This document shows positions 26,323-45,030 of a DNA stretch of 64,000 bases, in pieces. Numbering within the stretch: the first letter of the stretch is position 1; every line of letters begins with the position of its first letter. A program made the position numbers and the translations under genes. The notes beneath the pieces were generated by a model. The model did not search any database and was not told the DNA's origin. It saw only the letters and a program-made list of their open reading frames with translations. This DNA is from Gemmatimonadales bacterium (GTDB lineage Bacteria; Gemmatimonadota; Gemmatimonadetes; Gemmatimonadales; Gemmatimonadaceae): NCBI GenBank assembly GCA_044449085.1, contig JBIOHR010000001.1, forward strand, positions 1,134-65,133. The letters are read 5' to 3'.

Positions 26323-26402
26323 CACTGTGTCATCCTCCCGATCGGTGACCTGGCCGTTCGCCGGCGCGAGACCAAATGGCTCGCCGGCTCCATCAATCAA
26401 AA

Positions 26403-26655: not shown

Positions 26656-26715
26656 AGGCGGCTGAGTTTAGACCCTGCGTGATAGGGTGTCAAGCAAGTT
26701 CAAGCCACTTTGCCA

Positions 26716-27723
26716 TCAGTTAATGAGATTCTCATTTCCCGGCTTTGTTCCGCTGTCCGGCGGCGGGTGCTGTCCCCGTTCGGACTCGGCGTAAAGTAGC
26801 GCGCGTAACACAACTTCGCGCTCGCGCCGCTCCTCTCCTTCGTCCGCAGCCCGCATCGCGGCCATCCGCGCACGGTCGCGGCGGCGCCGGATCAGCCAGA
26901 ATGGCCACACGACGGCCAGCAGGACTCCCACGGCGAACGACACGTCGGCGAACAGCGCGAGCGCGCCGTACCGGCGCCGCGTGCCCGCCCGCCACCGCAC
27001 CTCGAACGCGGCGCCGGTGAGGCCGTATGCCCCGCGCATGGCCCGATCCATCGACTGCGTGCCGCGCCAGTACCGGAAAAACAGCGACAGCCCGTGCACG
27101 GGGTCGAGCGCCGCGATCGCCGCCACCGCGCTCCGCGCAAGCGCGTACCCCGTCTGTGCATTCGCTTCGCCGCCTTCGAAAAACGGATCGAGCGAGTCGA
27201 GCGGCGGGACGCCGCGGAACACGAGCGCGACGTTCGTCGCGAGCACATCGTCGCGTCCCGTCTCGCCGGCGGCGTACGAGGCATACCCTTCGTCGAACCA
27301 GCGCGGCGGGAGGTCGCCGAGCACCTCGTGCAGCGCGAGGTGCGCCAGTTCGTGGCGCAGTGTGGCACGCGGGTCGCCCGCGGCGGAGTTCGCCCGGCTC
27401 CCCTGCATCACGATGCGGCCATCGGCTGGAGTCGCGATCGCCGCGCCCCACTCCGGCGCCGAGGGCCCGATGGCGTCGTGGAAATGGGGCGCGTCGGGCG
27501 TGATCAATATCCGCGCGTGCGCTCGCGGCCGCGGCAGTCCGGGGAAGGTGTCGCGGCTCAGCGCCTCCAGCAGCAGCGACCGTGCCAGCGCGGCGTCACG
27601 CGGAAACGCCACGAAGGTGAAGCGCCCCGAATCGATTTCCACGGGGCGCGCCTGCACCGGCTCCTGCGCCGCGAGCGTCCGCGCCATCAACAGCGCGACC
27701 CACGCAAGCCGCGCGCGGCTCAC
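26716..27723 (-). CDS. membrane-anchored zinc metallopeptidase, peptidase-MA-like (HExxH)
   Basis: The GTG at 27723 overlaps the upstream stop (GTGA). Signal-like VSRARLAWVALLMARTLAA, then HELAHLALHEV (HExxH) and FDEGYASYAAGE (third-ligand Glu block). A C-terminal TM helix FAVGVLLAVVWPFWLI is followed by a charged tail. 335 aa. Confidence 0.75.
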   Translation of the reverse strand: MSRARLAWVALLMARTLAAQEPVQARPVEIDSGRFTFVAFPRDAALARSLLLEALSRDTFPGLPRPRAHARILITPDAPHFHDAIGPSAPEWGAAIATPADGRIVMQGSRANSAAGDPRATLRHELAHLALHEVLGDLPPRWFDEGYASYAAGETGRDDVLATNVALVFRGVPPLDSLDPFFEGGEANAQTGYALARSAVAAIAALDPVHGLSLFFRYWRGTQSMDRAMRGAYGLTGAAFEVRWRAGTRRRYGALALFADVSFAVGVLLAVVWPFWLIRRRRDRARMAAMRAADEGEERREREVVLRALLYAESERGQHPPPDSGTKPGNENLIN

Positions 27724-28583
27724 ACACGCGGAGGTTCGCCTCCAGCCTCCACCGTCTTGAGCAACTCCGCGCACCGCTTGCCCCATGGATTGAATTTGTT
27801 CGCCGAGAATCCGCGCTTCCACGCGTTCACCGCCTCATCCCGCTGGTCGTTGAACCAGTACGCCCGCCCCATCTCGAAGTAGGCCTCGATCAGGTTGGGC
27901 CCGAGCACGAGCGTCTTCTGGAAAAAGTTCTCTGCGTCCTCGTACATCTCGCGCTCGAGGTACACGAGGCCGAGGTAGAAATGTGCGTACAGCACCGCTT
28001 TCTTGTCGTTGTCGAGGCGAATGGCCTTGGAAAGGTGCTCGATCGCCTCGCCGAAAATCTTCTTCTTGAGGCAGATATACCCGACGTTGATGCGCGCGAG
28101 CGCGTTCGACGGCTCCCGCATCAGCACCTTGCCGAACGTGCCAAGCGCCTCGTCGTATTTCTCGTTGAGCATCTGCGCCCAGCCGAGCAGTGCCTCGCTC
28201 TGAGGGTCGCCGGGCGAGAGCTCGATCGCCTTGTTGAGGGCGGCCTCCGCTCCGTCGTAGTCCCCGAGCGACAGGCGGCTCCACCCCTTCTCGATGAACG
28301 TCGACGCGCCGATATGGTCTGCATGCACGACGGGCTTGTCCGCCGAAAATTGCGGGGCGAGCGAGGGCGCCGCGGCGGCCTGCTGCGCCTTCCACTTTTC
28401 CACAAGCAAGCGGATCTCTTCCTTGAGCGCCGCAAGGTCCGCCGTGGCCTGCTCGACGGTCTTGAACAGGCCGATGATCTCGACTTTTACGTTCGCGCGG
28501 TCGGCTTCGCCGAGGCCGGCGTCGAGCCGCCGGTTGATATCCGCGTATCGCGCGCGGAACTCGGCCAGCGTTTCATCAGGCAT
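27720..28583 (-). CDS. coiled-coil + TPR repeat protein
   Basis: 287 aa. N-terminal coiled coil (LAALKEEIRLLVEKWKAQQ), then about 5 TPR units (e.g. GDYDGAEAALNKAIELSPGDPQS, KYDEALGTFGKVLMREPSN). Overlaps the cheW stop by 8 nt. Confidence 0.85.
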   Translation of the reverse strand: MPDETLAEFRARYADINRRLDAGLGEADRANVKVEIIGLFKTVEQATADLAALKEEIRLLVEKWKAQQAAAAPSLAPQFSADKPVVHADHIGASTFIEKGWSRLSLGDYDGAEAALNKAIELSPGDPQSEALLGWAQMLNEKYDEALGTFGKVLMREPSNALARINVGYICLKKKIFGEAIEHLSKAIRLDNDKKAVLYAHFYLGLVYLEREMYEDAENFFQKTLVLGPNLIEAYFEMGRAYWFNDQRDEAVNAWKRGFSANKFNPWGKRCAELLKTVEAGGEPPRV

Positions 28584-29103
28584 CCGTCTTGGCCCCCGCC
28601 ACGGCTTGTTCGAGTACGATGCGTTCGCGCGCGGTGAGCAGCTGCGCGACGTCCAGGACGACGATCACGGGATCCTCCTCTGTCTTCGCGCGCACGAGGG
28701 CGCGCACGTACGGCTTTGCCAGGCCCTTGAACACCGGCGGCGGCGCCGAGAGGCGCGCCGAGGCGATCGTGACGACTTCGTCCACGCCGTCCACGATCGC
28801 GCCGATCCAGTCCTCACCGGCGACGACCACCAGGATGCGCGCACCGTCGCGGCGCGGCACCGGCGGGAGCTCGAAGCGCGCGCGCAAGTCGATCACCGGC
28901 ACCACGCGCCCGCCGTAGTCGATGACGCCCTCGAGCCACGCCGGCACGTTGGGAATCGGGCGCGGCGCCGCGTACCGCAGCACCCGCTCGACGGAAAAGA
29001 TGTCGGCGGCAAACAGGTCGTCGCCCACGCGGAAGGTGACGAGCTGCGTGCGGTCCGCGGGGGCCGCGTCGAGCGCGGGCCGTGGTCCCGAAGTTCTGGT
29101 CAT
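28576..29103 (-). CDS. cheW: chemotaxis coupling protein CheW
   Basis: The ATG at 29103 overlaps the upstream stop (ATGA). LVTFRVGDDLFAADIFSVERVLRY..PIPNVPAWLEGVIDYGGRVVPVIDLRARF is the CheW-domain core. 175 aa. Confidence 0.9.
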   Translation of the reverse strand: MTRTSGPRPALDAAPADRTQLVTFRVGDDLFAADIFSVERVLRYAAPRPIPNVPAWLEGVIDYGGRVVPVIDLRARFELPPVPRRDGARILVVVAGEDWIGAIVDGVDEVVTIASARLSAPPPVFKGLAKPYVRALVRAKTEEDPVIVVLDVAQLLTARERIVLEQAVAGAKTDA

Positions 29104-29567
29104 GACGCCATCCCGTCGACGAGAGTTCCGCTCCGCGACACCATCGCCGCGAGCGCATCCACGCGCACCACGTTCACCAGCGGGGTCCCCGCGCGGCCCA
29201 CGCGCCGCCGCGCACGAAACCAAATTCCGCTGAGCACACCGTCGGCATCCGCGCCCGGCGGCGTGGCGCGCACCTGGAGCGGTTCGATGCGGACCATCTC
29301 GGTCACGTCGTCGACCACCAGCGCGAAGCGGCGTTCACCGTCGCGCACGAGGAGTGCGGCACCGGCCGCGGCCGGTGCCGCGAAGCGGAACAGCCAGCCC
29401 GCATCCCACGCGCCAACCATGCGGCCGCGGTACGCCAGTTGGCCGAGCATGCCTTTCGGAACACCGGGCACCCACTCGATGACCGGAGCGTCGACGGCTT
29501 CCTCGACCTCGGAGGCCGGAAACGCGAAGTGCTCGCCGCCCACGCGCGCAATGATGTGCAGGCTCAT
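29100..29567 (-). CDS. cheW: CheW-like coupling protein (divergent)
   Basis: The ATG at 29567 overlaps the cheB stop (ATGA). MSLHIIARVGGEHFAFPASEVEEAVD...VPKGMLGQLAYRGRMVGAWDAG...ALVVDDVTEMVRI follows the CheW fold pattern. 155 aa. Confidence 0.8.
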   Translation of the reverse strand: MSLHIIARVGGEHFAFPASEVEEAVDAPVIEWVPGVPKGMLGQLAYRGRMVGAWDAGWLFRFAAPAAAGAALLVRDGERRFALVVDDVTEMVRIEPLQVRATPPGADADGVLSGIWFRARRRVGRAGTPLVNVVRVDALAAMVSRSGTLVDGMAS

Positions 29568-30685
29568 CGCGCGCTCCCCACCGCGCGACGCGCGCTCATG
29601 AGCGCCAGCACGGACGCCGCGACGCCGCCGAGCGGCGCGACGACGTCCGCGCCGGCGTGCACGAGCGCGGAGTGCGGCATGCCATAAATCGTCGCGGTTG
29701 CTCGGTCCTGCACGACGGCACCCCCGCCCGCGGCACGCACCGCCGCGAGGCCGGCGCTGCCGTCGCGTCCCATGCCGGTGAGGACCACGCCGGTGCACGC
29801 CGCACCGAAGTGTCTCGCGACGGACGCGAACAGCGGGTCGGCCGCGGGGCGTACGCCCCATACCGGCGCGGATTCGTCCAGCGCGATGCGGGCCTGCGCG
29901 CCGTCCGACGACACGGTCATGTGCTGGCCCCCCGGCGCGATGTAGACATGGTTCGCCAGCACGGCTTCCCCGTGCACCGCCTCGGACACCTCGAGCGACG
30001 ACATCCCATCGAGGCGCCGGGCGAGGCCGGCCGTGAAGCCGCGCGGCATGTGCTGCGCGACGAGCACCGCCGCCTCGAGTTCGCGCGTGAGCGCGGGCAC
30101 CACCTCAACGAGCGCACGGGGTCCGCCGGTGGACGCGGCAATCGCAACCGCGGCGCGCGCGCCGCGCGCCGAAATGCGCTCCCGGCCGGGCCCCGGCGAC
30201 AGGCGCGCCAGCATCGGCACGCCACGCAGATTGACGACGGCCGCGGCGCGGAGCGCCTCGTGCAGGCGTTCCGACATCGCCGGCATCGCCTCGCTAAACG
30301 CACCCGCTGGCTTGCGGACGAAATCGACCGCACCCAGCTCGAGCGCGCGGAGGGTGAGGTCGACCGCTCCACGGGCCTCGATGCCGCTCAGCATCACGAC
30401 GGCGCGCGGCGCCTCGCTCATGATGTACCCGAGTGCCGCGATGCCGTCGACCACCGGCATTTCGATGTCGAGCGTCACAATGTCGGGATCGAGCGCATGG
30501 ACCTTGGCGAGCGCGTCCATGCCGTCGCGGGCCGTGCCGATCACCGCGAAGTCGTCGAACCGCGCGATGAGGTCGCACACGACCTGCCGCACCAATGTGC
30601 TGTCGTCCACGACGAGCACCGTGCGCCGCGTGCCGCGCCCGGGGCCGCCAGCGCCGTCCGGCAGGCCCGATTCCCTAGAGGTCAC
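29564..30685 (-). CDS. cheB: chemotaxis response regulator protein-glutamate methylesterase CheB
   Basis: 373 aa, GTG start. Receiver domain VLVVDDSTLVRQ...PDIVTLDIEMPVVDG, followed by a methylesterase domain (AIAASTGGPRAL, HMPRGFT, LTGMGRDG). Confidence 0.93.
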   Translation of the reverse strand: MTSRESGLPDGAGGPGRGTRRTVLVVDDSTLVRQVVCDLIARFDDFAVIGTARDGMDALAKVHALDPDIVTLDIEMPVVDGIAALGYIMSEAPRAVVMLSGIEARGAVDLTLRALELGAVDFVRKPAGAFSEAMPAMSERLHEALRAAAVVNLRGVPMLARLSPGPGRERISARGARAAVAIAASTGGPRALVEVVPALTRELEAAVLVAQHMPRGFTAGLARRLDGMSSLEVSEAVHGEAVLANHVYIAPGGQHMTVSSDGAQARIALDESAPVWGVRPAADPLFASVARHFGAACTGVVLTGMGRDGSAGLAAVRAAGGGAVVQDRATATIYGMPHSALVHAGADVVAPLGGVAASVLALMSARRAVGSAR

Positions 30686-31151
30686 GTTCGCCTCCGCGCA
30701 CCGAGCGCACCTTTACCTGCCCCGTGAAGACGTCGAACGACACCGTCCGCCCGCTCTCCCCGCCAACGTCCTCGGCCAGCACCGGCACGCGCGCTGCCGC
30801 GAGCGCCGTGCGCGCGGCGGCGACGTTCCGGGCGCCCACCGATCCGCCGAACGCAAGCAGCGGCCCGAAGAGCGCGGCGCCGCCCACGAGCGCACCGGTC
30901 CACGGGCCCGCCGCGCCGAGTTCGCGCATCTCCTCGAGGAGCAGCGGCACGGCGCTCGAGGCGTAGCGCGCACGGTTCTCCACGGCGCGTCCGAGCGCGG
31001 CGTCGGGGAGCAGCACGTGCGCGAGTCCGCCGACTTTGGCGACGCGATCGTGGATCGTGATCGCCACGCAGGAGCCGAGGCCGATCGTCACGATCCGCGA
31101 GTGCCCCTTGGCGACCGCATGGTGTGCGATGCGCACGCGCAGCTCCGTCAC
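30675..31151 (-). CDS. cheD: chemoreceptor glutamine deamidase CheD
   Basis: 158 aa. The GTG start overlaps the cheR stop (GTGA). IVTIGLGSCVAITIHD..KVGGLAHVLLP is the CheD Cys/His active-site block. Confidence 0.9.
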   Translation of the reverse strand: MTELRVRIAHHAVAKGHSRIVTIGLGSCVAITIHDRVAKVGGLAHVLLPDAALGRAVENRARYASSAVPLLLEEMRELGAAGPWTGALVGGAALFGPLLAFGGSVGARNVAAARTALAAARVPVLAEDVGGESGRTVSFDVFTGQVKVRSVRGGERDL

Positions 31152-31975
31152 GGGCGCCGAAAGATGCGCTGCCGCGAGTCCACCGCGTCGAACAGCTTGC
31201 GCGACGGTCCCAGCAGGGTCTCGACTTTCCCGAGCACCAGATAGCCGCCCGGCGCGAGTGCGTCATGGAAGCGCCGCATGAGCGCGTCCTGCGACTCGCG
31301 GTCGAAATAGATGATCACGTTCCGGCAGGTGATCAAGTGCATCGCGTGCGGTGGCGGTGCCTCGAGCAGGAGGTCGCGGCGCTCGAACCGGATCAGCGAC
31401 CGGATCTCCGCGCCCGCCCGCCATTTTCCGGCGCCCGCCGGGACGAACCAGCGCTCGCGCAGCGCCGGCGGCGTCTCGGTGAACGACTCCGCGCCATAGG
31501 TCCCCGCCTCGGCCGCAGAGAGGCTGTCCCGGTCGATGTCGCTCGCCGTCACATGCACCCGCGACGCCGCGCCCGGCGTGCCGGCGCCGCCGCCCGCGGA
31601 TTCCATCCAGAGCGCCGCGAGCGTGTACGCCTCCTCGCCGGAGGCGCAGCCGGCGACCCAGCAATTCAACCGCGGCGCGGCGAGCGCGCGAAGCGCGGGC
31701 AGCACGGCCGTCGCGACGGCATCCCACGCTTCCGCATTGCGGAAGAGTTTGGTCACGTTCACGGTGAGCGCCGCGATCAGCCACTCGTATTCAGCGGGAT
31801 CGCTGTCGAGGAGCCGGCTGTACGACGCATAGTCGGCCGCGCCGCGGGCGCGCATGCGCACCGCGATGCGGCGCCGCATGCAGGTGTCCTTGTAATTCGC
31901 GACGCCAAAGCCGCGGTCGCGCGAGATCTTCGACGTCAGCGCAACGAAAGCGTCGTCGCCGCCCGTGTCGCTCAC
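31148..31975 (-). CDS. cheR: chemotaxis protein methyltransferase CheR
   Basis: The GTG at 31975 overlaps the upstream stop (GTGA). MRRRIAVRMRA, TVNVTKLFRN, WVAGCASGEEAYTLA and ITCRNVIIYF motifs. 275 aa with no TPR extension. Confidence 0.92.
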   Translation of the reverse strand: MSDTGGDDAFVALTSKISRDRGFGVANYKDTCMRRRIAVRMRARGAADYASYSRLLDSDPAEYEWLIAALTVNVTKLFRNAEAWDAVATAVLPALRALAAPRLNCWVAGCASGEEAYTLAALWMESAGGGAGTPGAASRVHVTASDIDRDSLSAAEAGTYGAESFTETPPALRERWFVPAGAGKWRAGAEIRSLIRFERRDLLLEAPPPHAMHLITCRNVIIYFDRESQDALMRRFHDALAPGGYLVLGKVETLLGPSRKLFDAVDSRQRIFRRP

Positions 31976-33591
31976 GACGCCGCCCGGGCCGCCTCGATGT
32001 TCTTGCGGGCCGTCTGGTTCCCGGGATCGAGCTGCAGCGCGCGCTCCCAGCACCGCACGGCATCATCGCGCTCGTTGCGCTTGAGCCGAATGTTCCCGAG
32101 CTTGAGCCAGACGTCCGGCCCGAGCATGTCGTTGAACTTCACGGCGCGCTGGTATGCGTCGAAGGCCTCGTCGAACATGCCGACGCGGTATTGCGCGTCG
32201 CCGATGTTCTTGTGCAGCTGCGCGATGCCCGCATCTTCCGAGACGCCGCGCTCCGCGGCCGCAAGCGCGTCCTTGTCCCGTCCGGCCCGCTCGAGCACGA
32301 CCGAAAGATTGTTGTGCAGCACGGCCGCGTGCGGATACGCCGCGGTGCCCTCCTCGAGCAGGCCGATCGCCTGCTCGGACTTCCCGCCGAGCGCGTAACA
32401 CAGCGCCGCGTAGTGAAACCACGCCGGTGACGGTGCGCGCCCCGAGTACAGCGGCCGCGCCGCGACGAAACTCGCCTCCGCCGCCGGAAGGTCGCCGTCG
32501 CGCAGCGCGAGCACGCCGAGCGACGTGTGCACGCGCGCGTCGCTTTCGCCGCCGCGCTTGATCGCTTCGACCAGGGCCTCGCGCGCCTTGGCGGGCTCGC
32601 CCTTCCGCTCGAAGGCGAACGCGAGGTTGTGCAGCACCGCGGGCGCCACCGCGCGCTGGTGCGCCGTATGCTCGAAGTCCGCCACCGCCTCGTCCCAGCG
32701 CGCGAGGCGCAGGTGCACGAGGCCGAGGAAGAACCGGGCCTGCATGTCGGTGGCGCGCAGGTCCACCACGCGGCGAAACTCGCGCTCGGCTTCGTCGAGC
32801 ATGCCGGTCTTGTAGAACGCCATGCCAAGGTTGCGGTGCTCCTCGACGCGCGCGTCCGGCGCAATCACATCCGGCGCGCGCGACTTTCCCACGCGATGCA
32901 GGAACCCGGCGGTGGAAAGCCCGTACAGCGCCTTGCCGACCTGGAACTCCACGAGGCCCGAGTCCTCGATGATCGCGGTCACGTCCCGCCGGCCGTCGAT
33001 CAGCGGGAGCAGCACCTGCTGTTCGGCGGTGAGTTTCGCGCCGCTCTCCTCGAGACGCTTGATGTCAATGTCGAAGACGATGTCGAACGATGGAATCTTC
33101 TTCTCGATGAGGCTCCACTCGTCCACCCGGCGCGCGCCCTCCAGCAACAGCGACTCCGGGTTGATCATCACGAGGAAGTCCTGCTCCTCTGGGCGGATGT
33201 CGCCCTCGAAGTTGAACGTCCCCTGCGTCCACGTGAACAGGAAGTAGACGGCCTCCTCGATTTGCAGCCGGATCTGGCTGTGCAGGTCCTCGCGCGAGAT
33301 GATGCGGAGGCCGACGAGGATTTCGCCGAGGCGCTTGTCGCGCTGTTTCTCCTGCGCGTCGATCGCCTCCTGCAGCTGTGACGGAGTGATCGCGCCGCTC
33401 TTGAGCAGGATGTCACCGAGGCGGTCGCGCCGGTTGACGATCGCCGCGTAACAGATGCGCCCCTTGTCGAAGTAGATCGAGCCGAAGTTGTTCCGGTGCG
33501 TGACCGACAGGCAGCCGGTTTTCTTCCCCATCGCGAGGAGCTGGAGCACGTCGGGGAGGCTCGCCTCCTTGAGGCTTCCCTTGATTGCCAT
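31972..33591 (-). CDS. PATAN/DUF4388 domain protein with C-terminal TPR repeats
   Basis: 539 aa. The N-terminus MAIKGSLKEASLPDVLQLLAMGKKTGCLSVT...GSIYFDKGRICYA...AVYFLFTWTQGTFNFE is the DUF4388 (PatA N-terminal type) signature with a helical insertion. The C-terminal half holds about 8 TPR units. Confidence 0.85.
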   Translation of the reverse strand: MAIKGSLKEASLPDVLQLLAMGKKTGCLSVTHRNNFGSIYFDKGRICYAAIVNRRDRLGDILLKSGAITPSQLQEAIDAQEKQRDKRLGEILVGLRIISREDLHSQIRLQIEEAVYFLFTWTQGTFNFEGDIRPEEQDFLVMINPESLLLEGARRVDEWSLIEKKIPSFDIVFDIDIKRLEESGAKLTAEQQVLLPLIDGRRDVTAIIEDSGLVEFQVGKALYGLSTAGFLHRVGKSRAPDVIAPDARVEEHRNLGMAFYKTGMLDEAEREFRRVVDLRATDMQARFFLGLVHLRLARWDEAVADFEHTAHQRAVAPAVLHNLAFAFERKGEPAKAREALVEAIKRGGESDARVHTSLGVLALRDGDLPAAEASFVAARPLYSGRAPSPAWFHYAALCYALGGKSEQAIGLLEEGTAAYPHAAVLHNNLSVVLERAGRDKDALAAAERGVSEDAGIAQLHKNIGDAQYRVGMFDEAFDAYQRAVKFNDMLGPDVWLKLGNIRLKRNERDDAVRCWERALQLDPGNQTARKNIEAARAAS

Positions 33592-35501: not shown

Positions 35502-35503
35502 GC

Positions 35504-36917: not shown

Positions 36918-37726
36918 GCGCGCCACCCCATCCATTCGTTGGCGCGATCGAGCGACCGCTCCAGCAGGCGCCGCACGTACCCGAGAGGGACGCTGCGCGG
37001 CGCGGCCACGAGGAGCACGCCTCCGCCGCCCGGGGCCATGGCGACGCTCGCCATGTCCGCCTCGAAGACAATCTGGCGCCAGCGGCCCAGCCCGAGATGG
37101 CGCATGGCGCGGTTGGCCTCGTCGCTCACGCCCGAGAGCTGCGCACCGATGTCCGCGCCGAGGTCGCGTCCGTCTTCCGTGCGGTACTCGCCGGCCACGA
37201 CGTAGCCATCGGCGTCGAGCAGGATCGCCGTCTGCGCGGCGTCGCCGAGCACGTCGTGGAACAGCGTGCGCGCGTCGACCATGCGTGCGGGCTCGGTCGG
37301 CGCCTCCTCGATCGGCCTGCCGTCGGCCTGCGACGCGCGCACCGTGTCGAGTGCCGCCGAGAGCGACTGATCGGCCGGGTCCGCGGCGAGCGCGGCACCA
37401 AGATAGCGCGCGGCCTCGTCGAGATCGCCCTGCTGGAAGCACAGAAAACCCAGCCCCTTCTGCGCGCCCCCGTGTCCCGGCGCCAGCGCGAGGACCGATT
37501 CCCATTCATCGCGGGCGCGCGCGAAATCGCCGCGGTCGATCGCGATGCGCGCGACGAGGTCGTGCGCGTCCGCGCGCTGCGCATGCCGCTCCAGTCCCCG
37601 GGTCGCGACGCGCCACGCAAGTTCGAGCTGACCAAGCCGCCGGAGCGCCTCGCCCAGCTGCACGAACACGATGCTCGACGGATCCGCGGCGAGCGTCTCG
37701 CTGAGCGTGCGGATGTCGTCACTCAT
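36914..37726 (-). CDS. TPR + Roadblock/LC7 fusion protein
   Basis: The ATG at 37726 overlaps the upstream stop (ATGA). 270 aa. The N-terminal 130 aa or so are TPR-like (GDFARARDEWESVLALAPGH, GDLDEAARYLGAALAADPAD). The C-terminal part, AILLDADGYVVAGEY...IVFEADMASVAMAPGGGGVLLVAAPRSVPLGYV, is Roadblock-type. Confidence 0.8.
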   Translation of the reverse strand: MSDDIRTLSETLAADPSSIVFVQLGEALRRLGQLELAWRVATRGLERHAQRADAHDLVARIAIDRGDFARARDEWESVLALAPGHGGAQKGLGFLCFQQGDLDEAARYLGAALAADPADQSLSAALDTVRASQADGRPIEEAPTEPARMVDARTLFHDVLGDAAQTAILLDADGYVVAGEYRTEDGRDLGADIGAQLSGVSDEANRAMRHLGLGRWRQIVFEADMASVAMAPGGGGVLLVAAPRSVPLGYVRRLLERSLDRANEWMGWRA

Positions 37727-38796
37727 GCGGGTGCGCCTCCACCGGGCCTGCGCGGGAGTGCGTTTGCGCCGCCCTGCGCTGGGTACCTCGCCTCGACGAG
37801 CGCGCGGAGCCTCGCCGCGGACTCGAGGCCGTCGCGCACGCGTCCGGTCATGTCGTGCCGCGGATGCGCCTGCAGCCACGTGGCCCATGACCCCACCGCG
37901 CTCTGGAAGTCACCGCGGAGCACGTACTGGAACCCGCGCTCGAGGTCGTCGGCACCGTCGGCGACCGGCGGCGGCGGGACGGCGAGCGGTGCGACCACCG
38001 GCGTCGGCACGTCGGCCACCGCGCGCGTGCCGATCGGCGGCGTTGGCGCACGCGCGGCGACCCGCTCGGCCACCGAAGGCGGAACCACGAGCTCCACCAC
38101 GCCCGTGCTCACGAGACCGTACACGACCTTCGCCGTGTCGAACTCCGTGCGCGCGAGCTGCGATGCGATCGCGCGCAGGTCGAGCGAGCCGTCGATCATC
38201 GTGAGCACCTCCCACTCACTCGGCAGGAGGTCGAGCATCGGCGCGTGCTGGTCGTCCTTCAGCGACGCGAGGCGGGGGATGGCGAGAAGGCTCGGCACGC
38301 GGTCGGAGATGCGCGACCACTCGTCGATGCGGCGCGCGCCCTCCATGAGCAGCGCCTCGGTGCCGATCTGCACCATCGGGTCGCCGTCCATCGCGCCTTC
38401 CTCAAAACGGAAGAAACCCTCGCGCCACGACAGCAGTTCGAAGATGACCGCCTCGATCTGGAGGCGCACCTGGCGCTCGAGTTCCTTTTGCGAGATCGCG
38501 CCCATCTCGAGCAGGATCTCACCGAGGCGGCGGCTGTCGCCGCGTTCCTTCTGCGCGGCGCTCGCCGCCGCCACCTGGGCGGCGGTGACGCGGCCTGTCC
38601 GCATCAGGAGATCGCCGAGGCGGTGCGGATTGCTCCGGATCGCCGCCGCTACGACCCTGCCATTCTGGAAGTGGACCGTCCCCTCGTTGTCGCGCAGCTC
38701 GGAGGTGACGGCAAGCGTTCCCGTCTTCCGGCTCAGGTCGAGAAGCTGGAAGACGTCGTGGATCCCGAGTTCGCGGAGCGGCCCTTCGATCGCCAT
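37723..38796 (-). CDS. PATAN/DUF4388 domain protein
   Basis: 357 aa. MAIEGPLRELGIHDVFQLLDLSRKTGTLAVT...GTVHFQNGRVVAA...VIFELLSWREGFFRFEE is a second copy of the DUF4388 signature, with the same helical insert (RLGEILLEMGAISQKELERQ). The Pro/Ala-rich C-terminus has no TPR. Confidence 0.85.
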   Translation of the reverse strand: MAIEGPLRELGIHDVFQLLDLSRKTGTLAVTSELRDNEGTVHFQNGRVVAAAIRSNPHRLGDLLMRTGRVTAAQVAAASAAQKERGDSRRLGEILLEMGAISQKELERQVRLQIEAVIFELLSWREGFFRFEEGAMDGDPMVQIGTEALLMEGARRIDEWSRISDRVPSLLAIPRLASLKDDQHAPMLDLLPSEWEVLTMIDGSLDLRAIASQLARTEFDTAKVVYGLVSTGVVELVVPPSVAERVAARAPTPPIGTRAVADVPTPVVAPLAVPPPPVADGADDLERGFQYVLRGDFQSAVGSWATWLQAHPRHDMTGRVRDGLESAARLRALVEARYPAQGGANALPRRPGGGAPA

Positions 38797-38798
38797 GG

Positions 38799-41522
38799 TC
38801 AGTGCCCTCCGAGGCGGCTGCCGAACACCGTCAGCAGGTCTTCGGCCGACCGCATCTCGCGGCGGGCACGCCGCGCGTAGTCACCCGCCGGCTCGAGTTC
38901 GATGACGCGGTGCCACCGCGCGATCGCCTCGCGATAGCGCTTCTGCGCGGCGAGGATGGCGCCGTCGTAGAACGTCGCGCCTGCGTGGTCGGGATCGAAC
39001 GCGAGCACGCGACGGAACGCCCTCGCGGCATCCGCGGGCCGGCTGAGCTCGATGAGCGTCTCGCCGAGCGCGATGTGTCCGTCAAAGTTGTAGGAGTCCC
39101 GCTGCAGCAGGTCGACGAGCAGGCTCACCGCCTCGCGCTGCTGGCCCGTGAGGCGGCGCAGCGTCGCGAGCTCGAGCGTCGCCTCCGCGTACGTCGGCAC
39201 CGCGTCGAGCGCGGCGACGAGTTCCTGCTCCGCTTCGCGCCACAGATGGCGCTGCATCAGGAGGCGCGCCAGATCGAAGCGCACGGCGGCGAAATCGGCG
39301 TCGAGCGCGAGCGCGTCGCGGTACGCGCGAATCGCGCCGTCGACGTCCCCGAGCGACCGCGTGATGTTGCCGGTCCAGCGGAGCACGTCCGCGCGCTCCG
39401 GCGCGAGCGCGCGCGCCGCGTCGAGGGCTTCGAGGGCCGCCGCGGGATCACCGGCCTCGAACCGGCACGTCGCCACGAGCATCAGCGCGTCGACGTCGTT
39501 CGGCACGGCAATGAGCACCTGCTCGGCGATCTCGCGCGCTTCCGCACCGCGGCCGAGGAGGAGCAGCGTCTGCGCCTCGCCGCGCCGCGCCCGCAGGTGC
39601 CACGGGTTCGCCGCGAGCGCCGCACGGTACTTCTCGAGTGCATCGCCGAACGCGCCCTGCCGGCACAGGATGTCGCCGAGCAGCGCGTTCCCCTCCGCCT
39701 CGTCGGCGCCCCGCAGGATGGCCCGGCTCGCCTCCGCCATCGCGCGGTCGTAGAGGCCCGTCGAGAGGTAATCGGCGGCCATCGTGAACGCGTCGGCCTC
39801 CACCATCACCGGCGGCGGCGGTTCAGGGGGCGGCGCGAGCTCGCTGAACAGCGATTCGAGCAGCCTCGGGTCGAACGTGAAGCTCTCGACTTCGCCGCTC
39901 GTGCGCTGCTCGCCGCCGAGGTCCGGCACGACCGAGAGGTCGGGGTCTTCGTACTCGAGGTCGATGGCCAGCGCGAATTTCTGCGGCACGTAATAGGGGT
40001 CGATCTCGAGCGCGCGCTTCGTTTCGCGCAGCGCGCCTTCGTGGTCCCCCAGGTTCGAGAGCGTGAAGCTCAGGTTGTAGTGCGCCTCGGCAAAGCGCGG
40101 CCGCGCCTGGATCGCGCGCGCGAAGCTGTTTCGCGCCTCCTCGAACTTGCGCAATTCCCCGAGCACGAGGCCGACGCCGTTCCAGGCGAGCGGGCTCTCC
40201 GGCTCCGTGACGAGCACCTGCTTGTACGCCTCGAGCGCGAGCTGGAAGCGGCGGCTCTTGGTGAGCAGCAACCCGAGGTTCAGCCGCGCCTTCACGAAGC
40301 CGGCGTTCGCTCCGAGGGCGTCGCGGAAGGCGTCCACGGCACGCTCGCGTTCGCCCGCGTGGTACAGTGCGACGCCGAGATTGTTGTGCGCAATCGCATA
40401 CAGCGGATCGGCCTCGAGCGAGCGGCGGTAGTTCTCCGCCGCCTCGGTGAAGCGGCCATCCTGGTGCTCCGCCACGCCGCGCTCGTTCCAGAGCTTCGGG
40501 CTGTCCGGCGTCTCGCGCAGGAGGCTGTCGTAGAGCGCGATGGCGGCCGCGGGATCCTTGCGCAGAATGTGCACTTCCGCCATCGCCTGCAGCACGAGCG
40601 CGCGGTCCTCGCCGCGCTCGAGCGCGAGTTGGTACTCGCGCTGCGCCTCCGAGTAGTACCCTTTCTGCCGGAACGCGAGGCCGAGGTTGTAGTGCGCGAG
40701 CTGGCCGCCCTCCGCCACCTGCATCATGCGCGCGGAACGCCGTTCATGCGGGCCCGGCGCGAGCTCGGCGTACTTCTCCGGGTTGTACTGGTCGAGCGAG
40801 AGGTTCGCCTGCGCGCGCGACAGCGTCGGGTTGAGGTGCACCGCGCGCTTGCTCGCCGCGGCCGCGTCCTCGTGGCGCCCCATGTCGCCGTAGACGAAGC
40901 TCAGCAGGAAAAGGGCGTCGGGGTTCTCGGGGTTCAGCTCGATCGCGCGCTTGAGCGCGTCGAGTGCCTCCTCCATGCGCCCCTGGTTGTAGAGAACTTC
41001 GCCGAGATAGAAGCGCGTGACCGAGCTGGCGGAATCGAGCCGGATGGCCTCTTCGAACCAGTGCTGAGCGGCCCCGAGGTTGCCGCCGGCCTTCTCCGCG
41101 AGACCGAGCTGCACGACGGCACCCAAATCGTTGGGATGATGCCGCAGCAGCGCCGTGAACTCCGCCACCGCGTCCTCGGACTGGCCGAGCAGCGCGTACG
41201 CGCGGCCGAGTTCCCAGCGTGCGTCGCGATCGTCCACGCGAAAGCGCAGCTTCTCGCGCAGTTCCGCGATGCGACGGTCGTAGTACCCCGTGTTGAAGTA
41301 GGCGACTTCGAGGTTGCGCTGCGCGACCTGCATCTTGGGGTCGAGCTCGAGCGCCTTCGTGAACGCGGCGGCCGCCTCCTCGTAGAGTCCCTTGTTGTAG
41401 TAGAGGACGCCGAGGTTGTTGTGTGCGCCGGCATCGGACGGATCGATGCGCCGCGCGAACGACTTGAGCGTGTCGCGGTCGCGGTCGGAGGCGAGCGGGG
41501 CGGACACGGGATGCTCAGCCAA
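38799..41522 (-). CDS. large all-TPR scaffold protein (about 900 aa)
   Basis: 907 aa from the TTG at 41522 (8-nt overlap with cheC). The alternative GTG at 41507 lies 8 nt after the cheC stop. More than 20 recognisable TPR units (AHNNLGVLYYNKGLYEEAAAAFTKALELDP, AHYNLGLAFRQKGYYSEAQREYQLALE, and so on). Confidence 0.88.
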   Translation of the reverse strand: MAEHPVSAPLASDRDRDTLKSFARRIDPSDAGAHNNLGVLYYNKGLYEEAAAAFTKALELDPKMQVAQRNLEVAYFNTGYYDRRIAELREKLRFRVDDRDARWELGRAYALLGQSEDAVAEFTALLRHHPNDLGAVVQLGLAEKAGGNLGAAQHWFEEAIRLDSASSVTRFYLGEVLYNQGRMEEALDALKRAIELNPENPDALFLLSFVYGDMGRHEDAAAASKRAVHLNPTLSRAQANLSLDQYNPEKYAELAPGPHERRSARMMQVAEGGQLAHYNLGLAFRQKGYYSEAQREYQLALERGEDRALVLQAMAEVHILRKDPAAAIALYDSLLRETPDSPKLWNERGVAEHQDGRFTEAAENYRRSLEADPLYAIAHNNLGVALYHAGERERAVDAFRDALGANAGFVKARLNLGLLLTKSRRFQLALEAYKQVLVTEPESPLAWNGVGLVLGELRKFEEARNSFARAIQARPRFAEAHYNLSFTLSNLGDHEGALRETKRALEIDPYYVPQKFALAIDLEYEDPDLSVVPDLGGEQRTSGEVESFTFDPRLLESLFSELAPPPEPPPPVMVEADAFTMAADYLSTGLYDRAMAEASRAILRGADEAEGNALLGDILCRQGAFGDALEKYRAALAANPWHLRARRGEAQTLLLLGRGAEAREIAEQVLIAVPNDVDALMLVATCRFEAGDPAAALEALDAARALAPERADVLRWTGNITRSLGDVDGAIRAYRDALALDADFAAVRFDLARLLMQRHLWREAEQELVAALDAVPTYAEATLELATLRRLTGQQREAVSLLVDLLQRDSYNFDGHIALGETLIELSRPADAARAFRRVLAFDPDHAGATFYDGAILAAQKRYREAIARWHRVIELEPAGDYARRARREMRSAEDLLTVFGSRLGGH

Positions 41523-42129
41523 CGCGGATCGCGCGGAGCATGGCAGTCAGGCTGCCGAGGTCTGGCATCAGGAGGAAGAATCCGCGGAGCGACTCGTTGA
41601 GCTCGGTCAGGTGGAATTCCGTCTCCACGCAGAACACGTACTCCGCGCCCTGCGCCATCTCGACGAACGTCGAGCTCATGACGGCGTCCGACATGTCGAT
41701 GGCGAGTGACGGCGGCGACGGGAGGAGGATCATGCCCATGAACTCGCTGAGCGCGTTGAGGTACGCGGCGCTCAGGATGTTCCCCGCCTCGCGCAGCGCG
41801 GACTGCTCGATCTCGCCGAGCGACTCGACCGCGTCGCGCTTCATCATCAGCCCGGCCACGCGCCGCGCCGTGGCCTGCGGAAAGATGAGCAGCGCGAGGC
41901 CCGTGAGGTCGCCGAGAATCTTCATGAGCACGGCCGCCACCGGCTCCTCGTCGGACCCGACCTGGTTCGGGATGTCCTCGAGGGCGGCGATGTTGATCTG
42001 CGGCACGCTGATCATGATCGTGTGGCCCGTCATCTGCGAGAGCGCGGTCGCGGCGTGCCCCGCGCCGATGTTCGCCACCTCGCGGAGGGCATCGAGCTGG
42101 AGTGCCTTGAGTTTGCGGATGTCGTCCAC
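41515..42129 (-). CDS. cheC: CheY-P phosphatase CheC
   Basis: 204 aa, GTG start 2 nt after the cheA stop. Two CheC active-site repeats are present: DALREVANIGAGHAATAL and SALREAGNILSAAYLNAL (D/S-x3-E-x2-N). Confidence 0.88.
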   Translation of the reverse strand: MDDIRKLKALQLDALREVANIGAGHAATALSQMTGHTIMISVPQINIAALEDIPNQVGSDEEPVAAVLMKILGDLTGLALLIFPQATARRVAGLMMKRDAVESLGEIEQSALREAGNILSAAYLNALSEFMGMILLPSPPSLAIDMSDAVMSSTFVEMAQGAEYVFCVETEFHLTELNESLRGFFLLMPDLGSLTAMLRAIRVG

Positions 42130-42131
42130 CG

Positions 42132-44093
42132 TTAACTCCCCTCGAAGAGGCTGCCCACGTCCATGATCAATGCCGGCGCGCCGTCCGCGAGGATCGTCGC
42201 CCCGCTGAACAGCGCGAGCGCGTCGCGCGCCGCGTCAAACTGCTTCACGACGATGTCCTGCTGGCCGATCAGCTCGTCCACGACGAGCCCGGACCGGCGC
42301 TCGCCGCGCTCGAGCACGACGATCTCCCGGTTCGCGACGGCGGCGCCGCGCGGGGCCGGCGCCGCGGCGCCCTGCCGCACAACGTCGCGCAAGTCGAGCA
42401 GCGGCAGCACCTCGTCGCGGAGCACCAGCACCCGCTTCCCCTTCACGTGCTGGACGACGTCGTCGCCGTACTCGAGCGTCTCGCGCACGTGCGTGAGCGG
42501 CAGCGCATAGCGCTCCGTGCCCGACCGCGCGAGCAGCGCGCGCACGATCGCCAGCGTGACGGGAAGGCGGATCGTGATCGTCGTGCCCTCGCCCGGCACG
42601 CTCTTCAGCTCCACCGATCCACCGAGTGCGCGCGCCTTGGACTGCACCACGTCGATCCCCACGCCGCGCCCCGAAAGATCGGAAACCTCGTCGGCCGTCG
42701 AGAAGCCGGGCTGCGCGATCAGCCGGAATAGGGTGTCGTCGTCGACGTCGCGCGTGGCCTCGTCCACGAGCCCCGAGGCGCGCGCACGCGCCAGCACCCG
42801 CGCGCGGTCGATGCCGCGGCCGTCGTCGCTCACGCGGATGAGCACCGCCGCGCGGTCGCGCGAGGCGCTCAGCACGAGGCGGCCGGAGCGCGGCTTCCCG
42901 GCGGCGGCGCGCGCCGCGGGCGACTCGATCCCGTGGCCGATGGCGTTGCGCAGCAGGTGCACGACCGGTTCGCCGATTTCGTCGAGCAGCGAGCGGTCCA
43001 GCTCGATCTCCTTCCCCTCGACGACGAAGTTCACGTCCTTGTTCAGCTGGCGCGCCGCATCGCGCACGAGGCGCGGAAAGCGGTCGAACACCTGCCACAC
43101 CGGAACCATGCGCATCGTCATGATTTCGGTCTGCAGGTCCGATACGAGGCGTGCCGCCATCTGCATGGCCTCGTCGAGCGCGGGGTCGCCGTTCGTCGCG
43201 GTGAGCTGGAGCAGGCGGCCGCGCGTGATGACGAGCTCGCCGATGAGGTTCATCAGCGCGTCGAGACGTGCCAGGTCGATCCGCACGTGACGCGTCGGAC
43301 GCGCGGACGGCCGCGCGGACTCTCCCCCCTCCTCCACGACTTCGATGGTCGTCCGCGACACATGCCGCGTGCGCCCCGCGACGTCGACTTCCACGAACGC
43401 GATGTCGCCGGCCGAGCGCACCGCCGCCTCGATCTCGTCAACGGACGCCGTCGTCACGACACGCATCGCGAACGCGAGCGGCGCGGTCGCCGCCTGCAGC
43501 TGCTCAACCGCCGGATCCGTCGCCGCGACGTCGCCGAGCGCGCGCACGCGCTGCACAGTCATGAACGCGCGCACCCCGGGAAGCGCCGTGTCCGCGGACT
43601 GCCGGACGCGCACGATCACCCCCGGGCCGTCGAGCGGATCGGACGCGGCGATCTGCACCAGCGCACCCGCCCCGCCGGCCGGTATCGCGGGGAACTCGCT
43701 CGTCGCCGAGCCGCCCGCGACGTCGCGCAGACGCTGCAGCGCGGCGATCATCGCCGGCGTCTGCACCGCGTGTTCGGACGCCGCGTCGATCGCGCTCTCG
43801 AGTGCGTCCGCCGACGCGAACAGCGCGTCCATGAGGTCGGGCGCCAGCAGCTGGTCCCCGCGACGCACGCGGTCGAGCACCGACTCGAGCTCGTGCGCGA
43901 ATTCCGCGACGGCATGGTACCCCATCGTCGCGCTCATGCCCTTCACGGTGTGCACGGCGCGGAACACGACGCTCACCGGCTCCACCGGATCCGTGCCCTC
44001 CTCGAGCGAGAGCAGCGCGCGATTGATCGCGGTGAGCTGCTCGCGGCTCTCCGTGCGGAAAAGCTCCGCGTAGCGCGATGGGTCGAGACTCAT
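42132..44093 (-). CDS. cheA: chemotaxis histidine kinase CheA
   Basis: 653 aa. Hpt P1 (FRAVHTVKGMSATMG), dimerisation P3 (RIDLARLDALMNLIGELVI), HATPase (HLLRNAIGHGIE, DDGRGID, GRGVGIDVV) and the C-terminal CheW-like P5. Confidence 0.96.
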   Translation of the reverse strand: MSLDPSRYAELFRTESREQLTAINRALLSLEEGTDPVEPVSVVFRAVHTVKGMSATMGYHAVAEFAHELESVLDRVRRGDQLLAPDLMDALFASADALESAIDAASEHAVQTPAMIAALQRLRDVAGGSATSEFPAIPAGGAGALVQIAASDPLDGPGVIVRVRQSADTALPGVRAFMTVQRVRALGDVAATDPAVEQLQAATAPLAFAMRVVTTASVDEIEAAVRSAGDIAFVEVDVAGRTRHVSRTTIEVVEEGGESARPSARPTRHVRIDLARLDALMNLIGELVITRGRLLQLTATNGDPALDEAMQMAARLVSDLQTEIMTMRMVPVWQVFDRFPRLVRDAARQLNKDVNFVVEGKEIELDRSLLDEIGEPVVHLLRNAIGHGIESPAARAAAGKPRSGRLVLSASRDRAAVLIRVSDDGRGIDRARVLARARASGLVDEATRDVDDDTLFRLIAQPGFSTADEVSDLSGRGVGIDVVQSKARALGGSVELKSVPGEGTTITIRLPVTLAIVRALLARSGTERYALPLTHVRETLEYGDDVVQHVKGKRVLVLRDEVLPLLDLRDVVRQGAAAPAPRGAAVANREIVVLERGERRSGLVVDELIGQQDIVVKQFDAARDALALFSGATILADGAPALIMDVGSLFEGS

Positions 44094-44141
44094 CGTCTGC
44101 GTCCGTTACGTCGGTGACACGTTCGGCGGGCGGCCGCGCGC

Positions 44142-44504
44142 TCAGCCGAGCACGCGCTGGACTGCCTCCAGCACGCGGCTCGGCTGGAAGGGCTTGACGA
44201 CGAAGTCCTTCGCTCCCGCCTGTATCGCCTCGACGACGAGCGCCTGCTGCCCCATCGCGCTGCACATCAGCACCTTCGCCTCGGGGTCGAAGCGCGTGAT
44301 CTCGCGCACCGCGTCGATGCCGCCCATGTCCGGCATGACGATGTCCATCGTCACGAGGTCAGGGCGAAGCTGCTTGTAGCGCTCGACCGCCTGCGCGCCG
44401 GTCTCCGCCTCGCCGACCACCTCGAAGCCCGCCTGCTGCAGGATGTCGCTGACCATCGTCCGCATGAAGATCGCGTCATCGCAAATGAGCACCGTAGGAG
44501 CCAC
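44142..44504 (-). CDS. cheY: chemotaxis response regulator CheY
   Basis: 120-aa single receiver domain. VLICDDAIFMR, LVTMDIVMPDMGG, and CSAMGQ..AGAKDFVVKPF. Confidence 0.95.
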   Translation of the reverse strand: MAPTVLICDDAIFMRTMVSDILQQAGFEVVGEAETGAQAVERYKQLRPDLVTMDIVMPDMGGIDAVREITRFDPEAKVLMCSAMGQQALVVEAIQAGAKDFVVKPFQPSRVLEAVQRVLG

Positions 44505-44547
44505 CGTACCCTCGCACAGAAAGAGTGATCGCGTGCCGCAACGCCGC

Positions 44548-45030
44548 CTAAAGCACCAACGCCTGTCTCACAATTTCGGCGACGTCGACGATGAGCGCCG
44601 TTTCCGCCCGCGACCCGCCGACATGCGCCAGGCCGCGGACAATCCCGCCTGCCGCGCGCTGCGAGTCGACAGTCTCGAGCGCGTCCTCCGACACATACTG
44701 CACGTCCCGCACTTCATCCACGCCGATCCCGAACGCCTTTCCCGCCGCCTCAACCACGACGATCGACTTGGCCCCGCCGCCGTCGGCATTGAACCGGACC
44801 GCCAGGTCGACCACCGTCACGAGCGTGCCGCGCAGGTTGATCAGGCCACGCACCCATGCCGGGGCGCCCGGCAGGCGCGTCGCCGGCCGCATCGCCACGA
44901 TCTCCCGCACCGCCTCGAGATCGCACGCGCACAGCCGTCCCGCGACCCCGAACAGGAGGAAGCGGCGAAGCTCCAGATCAGCCGTCGACTCTATAGAAGC
45001 CAAGGTACTCCAGCGGATCAGGGTGGGCAA
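44548..45030 (-). CDS. cheW: chemotaxis coupling protein CheW
   Basis: CheW core FLLFGVAGRLCACDLEAVREIV...LPGAPAWVRGLINLRGTLVTVVDLAVRF. The start is uncertain: TTG at 45030 (53-nt overlap with rluD) or TTG at 45003 (26-nt overlap). Confidence 0.85.
   Translation of the reverse strand: MPTLIRWSTLASIESTADLELRRFLLFGVAGRLCACDLEAVREIVAMRPATRLPGAPAWVRGLINLRGTLVTVVDLAVRFNADGGGAKSIVVVEAAGKAFGIGVDEVRDVQYVSEDALETVDSQRAAGGIVRGLAHVGGSRAETALIVDVAEIVRQALVL

Follow-up and report, generated by a model that had tools for sequence, protein, structure and literature searches.

In a 64,000-nucleotide (nt) stretch of Gemmatimonadales bacterium DNA (contig JBIOHR010000001.1; hereafter the window), 19 minus-strand genes run from cheW1 to a peptidase gene, and within this run a chemotaxis (Che) gene set is parted by a block that encodes the polarity GTPase MglA, its partner MglB and a series of accessory proteins. 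We tentatively read the arrangement as a conserved chemosensory–polarity gene string of Gemmatimonadota, in which Che signalling and cyclic di-GMP (c-di-GMP) would converge on MglA polarity; this is our preferred account, and we hold it at somewhat less than an even chance. The genes of the string, in coding-strand order and with the matches that identify them, are as follows.

44548..45030, minus strand: cheW1 (Pfam CheW, 3.5e-29), with its start at 45030 (TTG) or 45003
44142..44504, minus strand: cheY, single-domain response regulator (Pfam REC)
42132..44093, minus strand: cheA, with P1 (Hpt), P2, P3, P4 and P5 (Pfam; NCBIfam CheA_Halo, 4e-134; CheA matches in PDB)
41515..42129, minus strand: cheC/cheX-type gene, predicted CheY-P phosphatase (Pfam CheC, 8.8e-23; CheX, 3.8e-11)
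38799..41522, minus strand: TPR907, a 907-amino-acid (aa) all-TPR protein (Pfam)
37723..38796, minus strand: PATAN (DUF4388) protein (Pfam, 3.9e-34; NF053729 above cut-off; MshE, PilB and PilF N-domains in PDB)
36914..37726, minus strand: TPR-Roadblock/LC7 fusion (Pfam TPR families; Robl_LC7, 4.8e-6)
36570..36917, minus strand: stand-alone Roadblock/LC7 protein, 115 aa (Robl_LC7, 1.7e-6; PDB 7yh1, 6e-6)
36103..36573, minus strand: mglB, 156 aa, predicted Roadblock-type GTPase-activating protein (GAP) and partner of MglA (Myxococcus xanthus MglB structures)
35504..36103, minus strand: mglA, group-1-type Ras-like GTPase (Arf-like Pfam match; M. xanthus and Thermus thermophilus MglA)
33591..35501, minus strand: 636-aa tandem DnaA-domain-III AAA+ protein (Pfam Bac_DnaA, 2.1e-105, in two stretches; TIGR00362, 503 bits, in two stretches)
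31972..33591, minus strand: PATAN-TPR fusion (Pfam DUF4388, 5.1e-38; NF053729, 51.3 bits; MshEN-type motif)
31148..31975, minus strand: cheR methyltransferase (Pfam CheR, 8.7e-46; CheR_N)
30675..31151, minus strand: cheD receptor deamidase (Pfam CheD, 1.1e-21)
29564..30685, minus strand: cheB, REC plus methylesterase (Pfam)
29100..29567, minus strand: cheW2 (Pfam CheW, 3.3e-17), poorly conserved at 28–57%
28576..29103, minus strand: cheW3 (Pfam CheW, 2.3e-32)
27720..28583, minus strand: TPR287, a cytoplasmic 287-aa TPR protein (Pfam)
26716..27723, minus strand: HExxH metallopeptidase of the Peptidase_MA_2 family (Pfam, 1.1e-7, just below cut-off; HELAH motif)

On a base-by-base check, every junction between 45030 and 26716 is an overlap or a gap of at most 48 nt, as an earlier note on this DNA had stated. 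From cheW1 to the peptidase gene the first nine junctions measure +43, +48, +2, -8, +2, -4, -4, -4 and -1 nt and the last nine +2, -1, -4, -4, -11, -4, -4, -8 and -4 nt, and no open reading frame (ORF) of the string contains an internal stop. The individual overlaps that had been listed are likewise present: five of ATGA type (37726, 36917, 36573, 29567 and 29103), three of GTGA type (31975, 31151 and 27723), 1-nt TGATG overlaps at 36103 and 33591, and overlaps of 8–11 nt at 41522, 30685 and 28583. Pfam bears out the gene order from cheW through to the HExxH peptidase, and with it the location of mglB, mglA and the accessory genes, with a kinase half (cheW-Y-A-C) on one side and an adaptation half (cheR-D-B-W-W) on the other; the middle block extends from TPR907 to the PATAN-TPR gene, and TPR287 and the Peptidase_MA_2 gene make up the tail. 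A scan based on sigma-70 and rho-independent consensus signals only, which may not suit this phylum, detected no strong internal terminators or promoters beyond shuffle expectation, with 10 terminator-like sites, all weak, against 7.3 +/- 2.4 in shuffles, and no sigma-70-like promoter within the string.

The architecture is ancient and stable. Our census comprised the best 80 of at least 594 matching mglA stretches in species-representative genomes, together with eight loci (L081–L088) reached through the AAA+ gene; the figure of 594 is not a count of the architecture, as some of the peptide patterns are common to other phyla. With the window proteins as tblastn queries, cheA and cheC were found in all 42 loci that extend at least 7 kb upstream of mglA, and cheR, cheD and cheB in all 52 that extend at least 5 kb downstream. 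The suspicion that the juxtaposition might be unique to this genome is dispelled by its recurrence: both Che halves surround mglBA in 33 of 33 loci with both flanks, and of the 29 loci that span 19 kb or more, 26 follow the gene order of the window. All of the best 80 loci are of Gemmatimonadales type; 76 are labelled Gemmatimonadota or a subgroup of it, two are labelled 'bacterium', and two are short contigs with other labels. L071 is labelled Solirubrobacterales and L076 Acidimicrobiia; their string genes are Gemmatimonadales-like, and both are probably misbinned contigs. MglA itself has thousands of relatives at 85–95% identity, and the named ones all belong to Gemmatimonadota but for one labelled Planctomycetes.

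The tight spacing is shared by the relatives, in which junctions are overlaps or short gaps with medians of -55 to +13.5 nt. The median is +3 nt from cheC to TPR907 and -4 nt from PATAN-TPR to cheR, where the genes overlap in 88% of loci; for cheW1, the start at 45003 lies closer to the relatives' median overlap than the one at 45030. The exception is the variable cheB-to-cheW2 junction, where some relatives carry an extra AAA_22 ATPase gene that the window does not have (265 aa, at 16563-17360 of L010 between cheB and cheW2; same site in L011 and L022). The interleaving of kinase half, Mgl block and adaptation half is kept across clades in which the product of rluD, the gene next to cheW1, is only about 48–56% identical. 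Over full-length matches in the relatives, CheY is 78–98% and MglA 72–92% identical, against 45–84% for RluD in the same loci; these are the two most conserved products, which fits hub proteins having many partners. TPR287 comes third, at 54–87% overall and about 60–65% in clades where RluD is at about 50%, and its conservation suggests a hub role as well.

In all variants seen, a small sample, Che and Mgl genes are either present together or absent together. A compact form (L072, L073 and L080; 2477-14073 in L072, where a GDP-mannose dehydratase gene follows cheB) keeps cheW-Y-A-C, a TPR gene, the PATAN gene, two Roadblock genes, mglB, mglA, the PATAN-TPR gene, cheR and cheB, and is without the AAA+ gene, cheD, cheW2/3, TPR287 and the peptidase gene. 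L081, whose AAA+ protein is 33% identical to that of the window, has the full order minus cheB and cheW2/3, and L084 has the same middle block as the window. A reduced form (L086–L088) reads yggS-divIVA-PNP-ileS-rluD-Roadblock-AAA+-PATAN/TPR-Peptidase_MA_2, without che genes and without mglA, and the short L085 holds rluD-Roadblock-AAA+ only. All three variants, full, compact and reduced, have the PATAN-TPR gene. The reduced core, with a Roadblock protein of 146–168 aa, has the following coordinates.

L085, 2284-4158
L086, 9470-14824
L087, 9464-14440
L088, 9564-15539

Here rluD and the Roadblock gene overlap, and the IleS of L086, the sole IleS among L085–L088, is ~52% identical to that of the window. 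L078 was considered as a cheA-less variant and rejected, being the same operon in frameshift-broken form in a long-read metagenome-assembled genome. The proposal that the Mgl genes had been inserted into a Che operon holds as a description of position; insertion is only one evolutionary reading, since a core without che and mglA occupies the same site. By pairwise identity, the RluD, PATAN-TPR and peptidase sequences split the clades three ways, without an order of gain versus loss for Che and Mgl.

The GTPase is, on its alignments and motifs, a genuine MglA of group 1 in the sense of Wuichet & Sogaard-Andersen 2014. It aligns with M. xanthus MglA over residues 1-198 at ~65% identity (E 5.5e-74) and with T. 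thermophilus MglA over its full length (E 8.8e-67), and keeps the intrinsic arginine finger (R53 in M. xanthus), the catalytic Gln (Q82) and TxxGQ in G3. The segments TDRTLFFDF and YTVPGQ are identical in M. xanthus MglA, and NKRD is also conserved. The mglB gene lies directly upstream of mglA with a 1-nt overlap, and the PDB matches of its product are limited to M. xanthus MglB (three structures, E 2.7e-6); a Robl_LC7 match in Pfam is not found for the window MglB, and a weak one is found for its orthologue in L084.

The Che set is F1-like, resembling the Thermotoga/archaeal flagellar type as judged by proxies rather than by class hidden Markov models. The component set of flagellar class F1 (Wuichet & Zhulin 2010) is present, with CheC, CheD, CheA (P1-P5), CheW, CheY, CheR and CheB. 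By Pfam, CheA has the domain order Hpt-P2-dimerisation-HATPase-CheW and no receiver domain, and the receivers in the string are those of CheY and the CheB N-domain only. CheY shares ~63% of its residues with the flagellar CheY of Thermotoga maritima (E 1e-50), and the two hardly differ in the alpha4-beta5-alpha5 face; the best NCBIfam models for the kinase and the regulator are the archaeal CheA_Halo and CheY_Halo, both below equivalog cut-offs. Frz, which the earlier note had brought in for comparison, does not suit this Che set: with a CheA that lacks REC, no FrzZ- or FrzCD-type gene found and a CheY that is Thermotoga-like, assignment to the Frz-like alternative cellular functions (ACF) class was rejected. 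To speak of a full Che pathway was likewise an overstatement, since a receptor gene, encoding a methyl-accepting chemotaxis protein (MCP), was not found in the string, the window or the 80 related loci, with Pfam applied to all supported ORFs. Probes for Tsr/Thermotoga-type MCP hairpins also gave no tblastn match in the window and the 80 loci, the probes being without a positive control in these data. The presence of cheR, cheD and cheB implies that receptors are encoded elsewhere in the genome.

The two PATAN proteins are predicted c-di-GMP receptors of MshEN type. In both, the 122 positions of the DUF4388 profile are stretched across ~160 residues by a helical insertion, and this insert carries two tandem MshEN-type RLGxx(L/V/I)(L/V/I)xxG motifs (for example RLGDILLKSGAITPSQLQEAIDAQ and RLGEILLEMGAISQKELERQVRLQ). 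The c-di-GMP motif model NF053729 scores 40.1 and 51.3 bits for the two proteins against a cut-off of 38, and their matches in PDB are MshE (5htl) and the PilB and PilF N-domains. Past its two tandem motifs, the PATAN protein at 37723..38796 has a linker rich in Pro and Ala, followed by a helical region at the C-terminus. For TPR907, which is conserved at 46–85%, a transmembrane segment or signal peptide was not found; the protein is probably cytoplasmic and a candidate scaffold or MglA effector.

In the reading that we prefer, receptors encoded elsewhere would feed a core of CheW and CheA that is F1-like (Thermotoga/archaeal); CheA would phosphorylate the single-domain CheY, CheC would reset CheY, and CheR, CheD and CheB would adapt the receptors. 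CheY-P and c-di-GMP, the latter read by the MshEN motifs of both PATAN proteins, would then converge on the MglA/MglB switch, in which MglB, the TPR scaffolds and the other two Roadblock proteins would take part, and the outcome would be to set or invert the pole where MglA-GTP activates a polar machine. In function this would parallel the action of Frz on MglA/MglB in Myxococcus, except that the connectors are encoded in cis. Predicted in this scheme are the direction of signal flow, the contact of CheY with PATAN or Mgl proteins, the binding of c-di-GMP and the nature of the output.

We favour this reading because MglA is genuine and its partner matches M. xanthus MglB, because the Che halves flank mglBA wherever the loci are long enough (42/42, 52/52 and 33/33), and because Che and Mgl occur together or not at all in the small sample of variants. 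Precedents for the individual links, together with the c-di-GMP motifs of the PATAN proteins, add to these grounds. Two of them are Rosetta-stone links by domain fusion: PATAN is fused to a CheY-like receiver in cyanobacterial pilus-taxis regulators, which bind the PilB pilus motor (bioRxiv 10.1101/2021.06.11.447907), and MshEN has been found fused to REC, CheA and CheX (PMC5013675). In addition, Frz acts on MglA/MglB through response regulators (PMC3441718, PMC4316618).

Four points weigh on the other side. Housekeeping genes join cheW just as tightly as the genes of the string join each other, so that co-transcription would not prove shared function. The Che proteins appear to be of flagellar type, and a flagellar motor may be all that CheY acts on. 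The Pfam matches of the string and window include neither an exchange factor resembling RomR/RomX nor a regulator resembling FrzZ/FrzX, nor any gene for a motility machine. Finally, the census covers the nearest 80 mglA loci and the eight loci L081–L088 only.

The second of these points underlies the strongest rival, which we consider rather unlikely. In it, an ordinary flagellar (F1-like) Che pathway would be served by the Mgl, Roadblock, PATAN, TPR and AAA+ proteins as spatial organisers that place or segregate the receptor array and/or the flagellum at a pole, such that the polarity module acts on Che localisation rather than Che on polarity. Other bacteria encode positioning NTPases within their che/fla operons (ParC/ParP, PpfA, FlhF/FlhG), and Gemmatimonas aurantiaca has been described as flagellated. 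The composition of the string speaks for such a pathway, with a CheY close to that of T. maritima whose motor/phosphatase-binding face is nearly unchanged, with CheC and CheD both present, a CheA with P2 and without REC, archaeal models as the best NCBIfam matches of CheA and CheY, and three cheW genes. However, conservation of this CheY face is no proof of motor binding, as CheA-P2 and CheC are bound there too, and flagellar genes were not found nearby. Moreover, MglA is not known in any organism to position chemoreceptor arrays or flagella, and the literature ties PATAN to type IV pilus control, not to flagella.

Beyond the Che and Mgl genes, the string contains a tandem AAA+ protein, PATAN-TPR, a Roadblock protein and a membrane-anchored peptidase, which form an accessory sub-module separable from Che/Mgl. 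The N-terminal half of the AAA+ protein matches domain III of Bacillus subtilis DnaA with E 1.5e-59, and both halves retain Walker A and B, the box VII arginines and the sensor-II arginine. No Bac_DnaA_C match is found in the protein, and its coverage is limited to DnaA positions about 103-329; identification as a DnaA orthologue was rejected, as both domain I and the DNA-binding domain IV are missing. In a search against 1.8 billion representatives, the family appears as diverse tandem DnaA-domain proteins of roughly 600–700 aa, with identity down to 31%. Three much larger proteins of 1645-1990 aa (P0190, P0192 and P0201) contain a DnaA-domain-III module 36–42% identical to the window AAA+ protein. 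The peptidase, the product of the last gene of the string, has a signal-like N-terminus and a C-terminal transmembrane helix and is the sole apparently non-cytoplasmic product among the string proteins. Roadblock, AAA+, PATAN-TPR and peptidase genes can stand apart from Che and Mgl as a core that occupies the same place in the chromosome, and this four-gene core of the reduced loci appears to be a distinct system not described before. These observations allow for a more far-reaching account, which we think unlikely: an ancestral Roadblock/tandem-DnaA-AAA+/PATAN-TPR/membrane-peptidase core would have merged in Gemmatimonadota with flagellar-type Che and MglA/MglB into an unrecognised integrated machine, in which the state of chemoreceptors, c-di-GMP and possibly replication or division would jointly set polarity through direct CheY-P–PATAN–Roadblock–MglA contacts.

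The surroundings of the string bear on a further alternative. The window is a nearly continuous minus-strand gene run (ORFs supported by GC content at third codon positions, GC3), and cheW1 is preceded by rluD, lspA, dksA, ileS, a PNP-family phosphorylase gene, divIVA and yggS, with junctions, from cheW1 outward, of -53/-26, -29, -23, +2, -4, 0 and 0 nt. The first neighbour, rluD, is conserved in all lineages, and its overlap with cheW1 is kept in 24 of 24 relatives. By junctions alone the tight string comprises 27 genes, from about 52303 to 26716. The description of a 19-gene operon is right in that its junctions are tight; its upstream boundary is a functional one only, as the tight run extends to yggS. 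Tight junctions are a property of the whole gene-dense region, and since they also unite housekeeping genes with cheW, they do not by themselves delimit a dedicated operon. Nor do the overlaps by themselves imply co-production in fixed stoichiometry or physical coupling, as the earlier note had supposed, given that the housekeeping genes ileS, lspA and rluD overlap just as tightly.

The che and mgl/PATAN/AAA+ modules might be functionally independent neighbours whose linkage persists through inertia, within a dense block of co-directional genes that includes housekeeping and cell-division genes and whose junctions reflect genome compaction rather than a common pathway. The continuation of the overlaps through rluD, lspA, dksA, ileS, PNP, divIVA and yggS agrees with this idea, as do the separate losses of sub-modules in the compact and reduced variants and the failure to find an MCP gene in cis. 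Against it stand the interleaving of kinase half, Mgl block and adaptation half, which is kept at RluD identities of about 48–56%, and the joint occurrence or joint absence of Che and Mgl in every variant seen; with separate precedents for functional links of Che to MglA and of Che to PATAN, we regard independence as distinctly unlikely.

Budding-like division has been reported for Gemmatimonas. A polarity system linked to the cell cycle or division rather than to motility, with the AAA+ protein making a putative DnaA/origin contact, MglA/MglB marking a pole, for instance for such budding, and Che and c-di-GMP acting as gates, would accommodate the DnaA domain III match and the ATPase motifs in both AAA+ halves, the conserved site between yggS-divIVA-ileS-rluD and mraW-ftsI-mur-ftsW-ftsA-ftsZ (window and L081) and the persistence of a Roadblock-AAA+-PATAN/TPR-peptidase core there without Che or MglA, but is very unlikely given that the AAA+ protein has no DNA-binding domain IV, that the compact variant retains Che and Mgl without it, and that the site beside the division cluster may be historical, the ileS-lspA-rluD/divIVA neighbourhood being ancient.

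The remaining features of the region lie on either side of the string or at its end. The Bacillus gene order divIVA-ileS-lspA-rluD resembles the block upstream of cheW1. Upstream, lspA, absent from the earlier note, lies where dksA and rluD had seemed to be separated by 503 nt of intergenic DNA, and it overlaps each of them; at the other end, a 239-nt gap, a promoter-like site and a tRNA gene, the only structured RNA detected by Rfam, all lie 3' of the peptidase gene. Beyond them follows the division/cell-wall cluster, so that the string stands between yggS-divIVA-ileS-rluD and mraW-ftsZ in the window and in L081, with the mraW side also seen in L072. The coordinates are as follows.

51044-52324, minus strand: yggS-divIVA side of the string
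45930-46484, minus strand: lspA, signal peptidase II (Peptidase_A8, E 5e-36)
44978..45958, minus strand: rluD-like pseudouridine synthase (Pfam S4 and PseudoU_synth_2), overlapping cheW1 by 26-53 nt
26665-26693, minus strand: promoter-like site, the region's sole sigma-70-like match, just upstream of tRNA-Val
26403-26476, minus strand: tRNA-Val, after the peptidase gene
24550-26400, minus strand: 616-aa weak-TPR gene, whose longest ORF starts 2 nt past tRNA-Val and whose true start probably lies further downstream
8356-24385, minus strand: mraW, ftsI, murE, murF, mraY, ftsW, murC, ftsA and ftsZ
5111-6913, minus strand: 600-aa GC3-supported ORF beside ftsZ and an M23 peptidase gene, with no Pfam family

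The wiring of a Che pathway to a small-GTPase polarity switch is understood only in Myxococcus, where the parts lie dispersed and the connectors came to light only slowly, through genetic work. Here an abundant, little-studied soil phylum holds Che, MglA/MglB, Roadblock, PATAN and TPR genes in one string, which amounts to a parts list of candidate connectors. The string further suggests that MglA can be coupled with a flagellar (F1-like) rather than a Frz-type Che system, and it exposes an uncharacterised family of tandem DnaA-domain ATPases tied to Roadblock and PATAN. Since cultured Gemmatimonas strains exist, the predictions can be tested, and the string offers a natural system for chemosensing–polarity wiring.

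How far the architecture is new depends on which of its parts is compared. The earlier note did not recognise it as described, and this stands for the che linkage: we found in open-access text, with MiST classes outside the scope of the search, no description of mglBA interleaved with che, of the tandem DnaA-type ATPase or of the reduced core. It does not stand for the neighbourhood of PATAN with MglA and MglB, which has been published (Makarova et al. 2006, as cited in PMC4316618), Gemmatimonas included. Table S2 of Wuichet & Sogaard-Andersen 2014 (PMC4316618) lists Gemmatimonas aurantiaca with GAU_1115 as 'MglB>MglA>' and GAU_1409 as 'PATAN>MglA>-PATAN>'. These surveys share with our string a group-1 MglA with MglB and PATAN, catalogued in the same phylum; only MglA, MglB and PATAN are listed in them, and the che halves, the AAA+ gene, the Roadblock paralogues and the 19-20-gene order go unreported.

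Other systems resemble the string in single aspects. ParC/ParP, PpfA and FlhF/FlhG likewise represent an NTPase switch embedded in a chemotaxis operon, but these are ParA/MinD-type or SRP-type NTPases, and none is an MglA/Roadblock pair. In the actinobacterial conservons (CvnA-D), an MglA-family GTPase shares one operon with a Roadblock protein and a histidine kinase, a sensor kinase being wired in cis to a small GTPase; their kinase, however, is a membrane sensor kinase rather than CheA, their GTPase is an MglA of group 2 without the group-1 catalytic set-up, and Che adaptation enzymes, PATAN and AAA+ are lacking. In common with DnaA and Hda, the 636-aa AAA+ protein consists of DnaA domain III modules in both halves, with motifs intact, whereas its tandem duplication, its lack of domains I and IV and its signalling context, rather than a replication origin, set it apart.

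The cyanobacterial pilus-taxis systems of Tfp class (PixG/PixE and PatA-type PATAN-REC proteins) come closer, as there PATAN and a Che phosphorelay set the polarity of a motility machine, much as proposed for the string, and the MshEN-type insert suggests a c-di-GMP input. In contrast to them, PATAN in the string has TPR or a Pro-rich tail as its fusion partner instead of a receiver, CheY is encoded by a separate gene, MglA/MglB are present, and PilB or pilus genes were not found nearby. Myxococcus Frz–MglA/MglB offers the broadest likeness: the MglA proteins are ~65% identical, MglB is the predicted Roadblock GAP and is accompanied by extra Roadblock paralogues (compare MglC), CheA, CheW, CheR and CheB plausibly stand upstream of the GTPase, and the TPR proteins are possible MglA effectors (compare SgmX). 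The Che sets differ, as the CheA of the string has no REC, CheC and CheD are present, CheY is Thermotoga-like, and FrzZ, FrzX and FrzCD were not found; nor does the string have RomR/RomX in cis. The frz and mglBA loci of Myxococcus lie apart, as the earlier note had it and the literature confirms (PMC4316618), whereas in the Gemmatimonadota string che and mgl are interleaved and are joined by PATAN/MshEN proteins, a tandem DnaA-type AAA+ protein and a peptidase.

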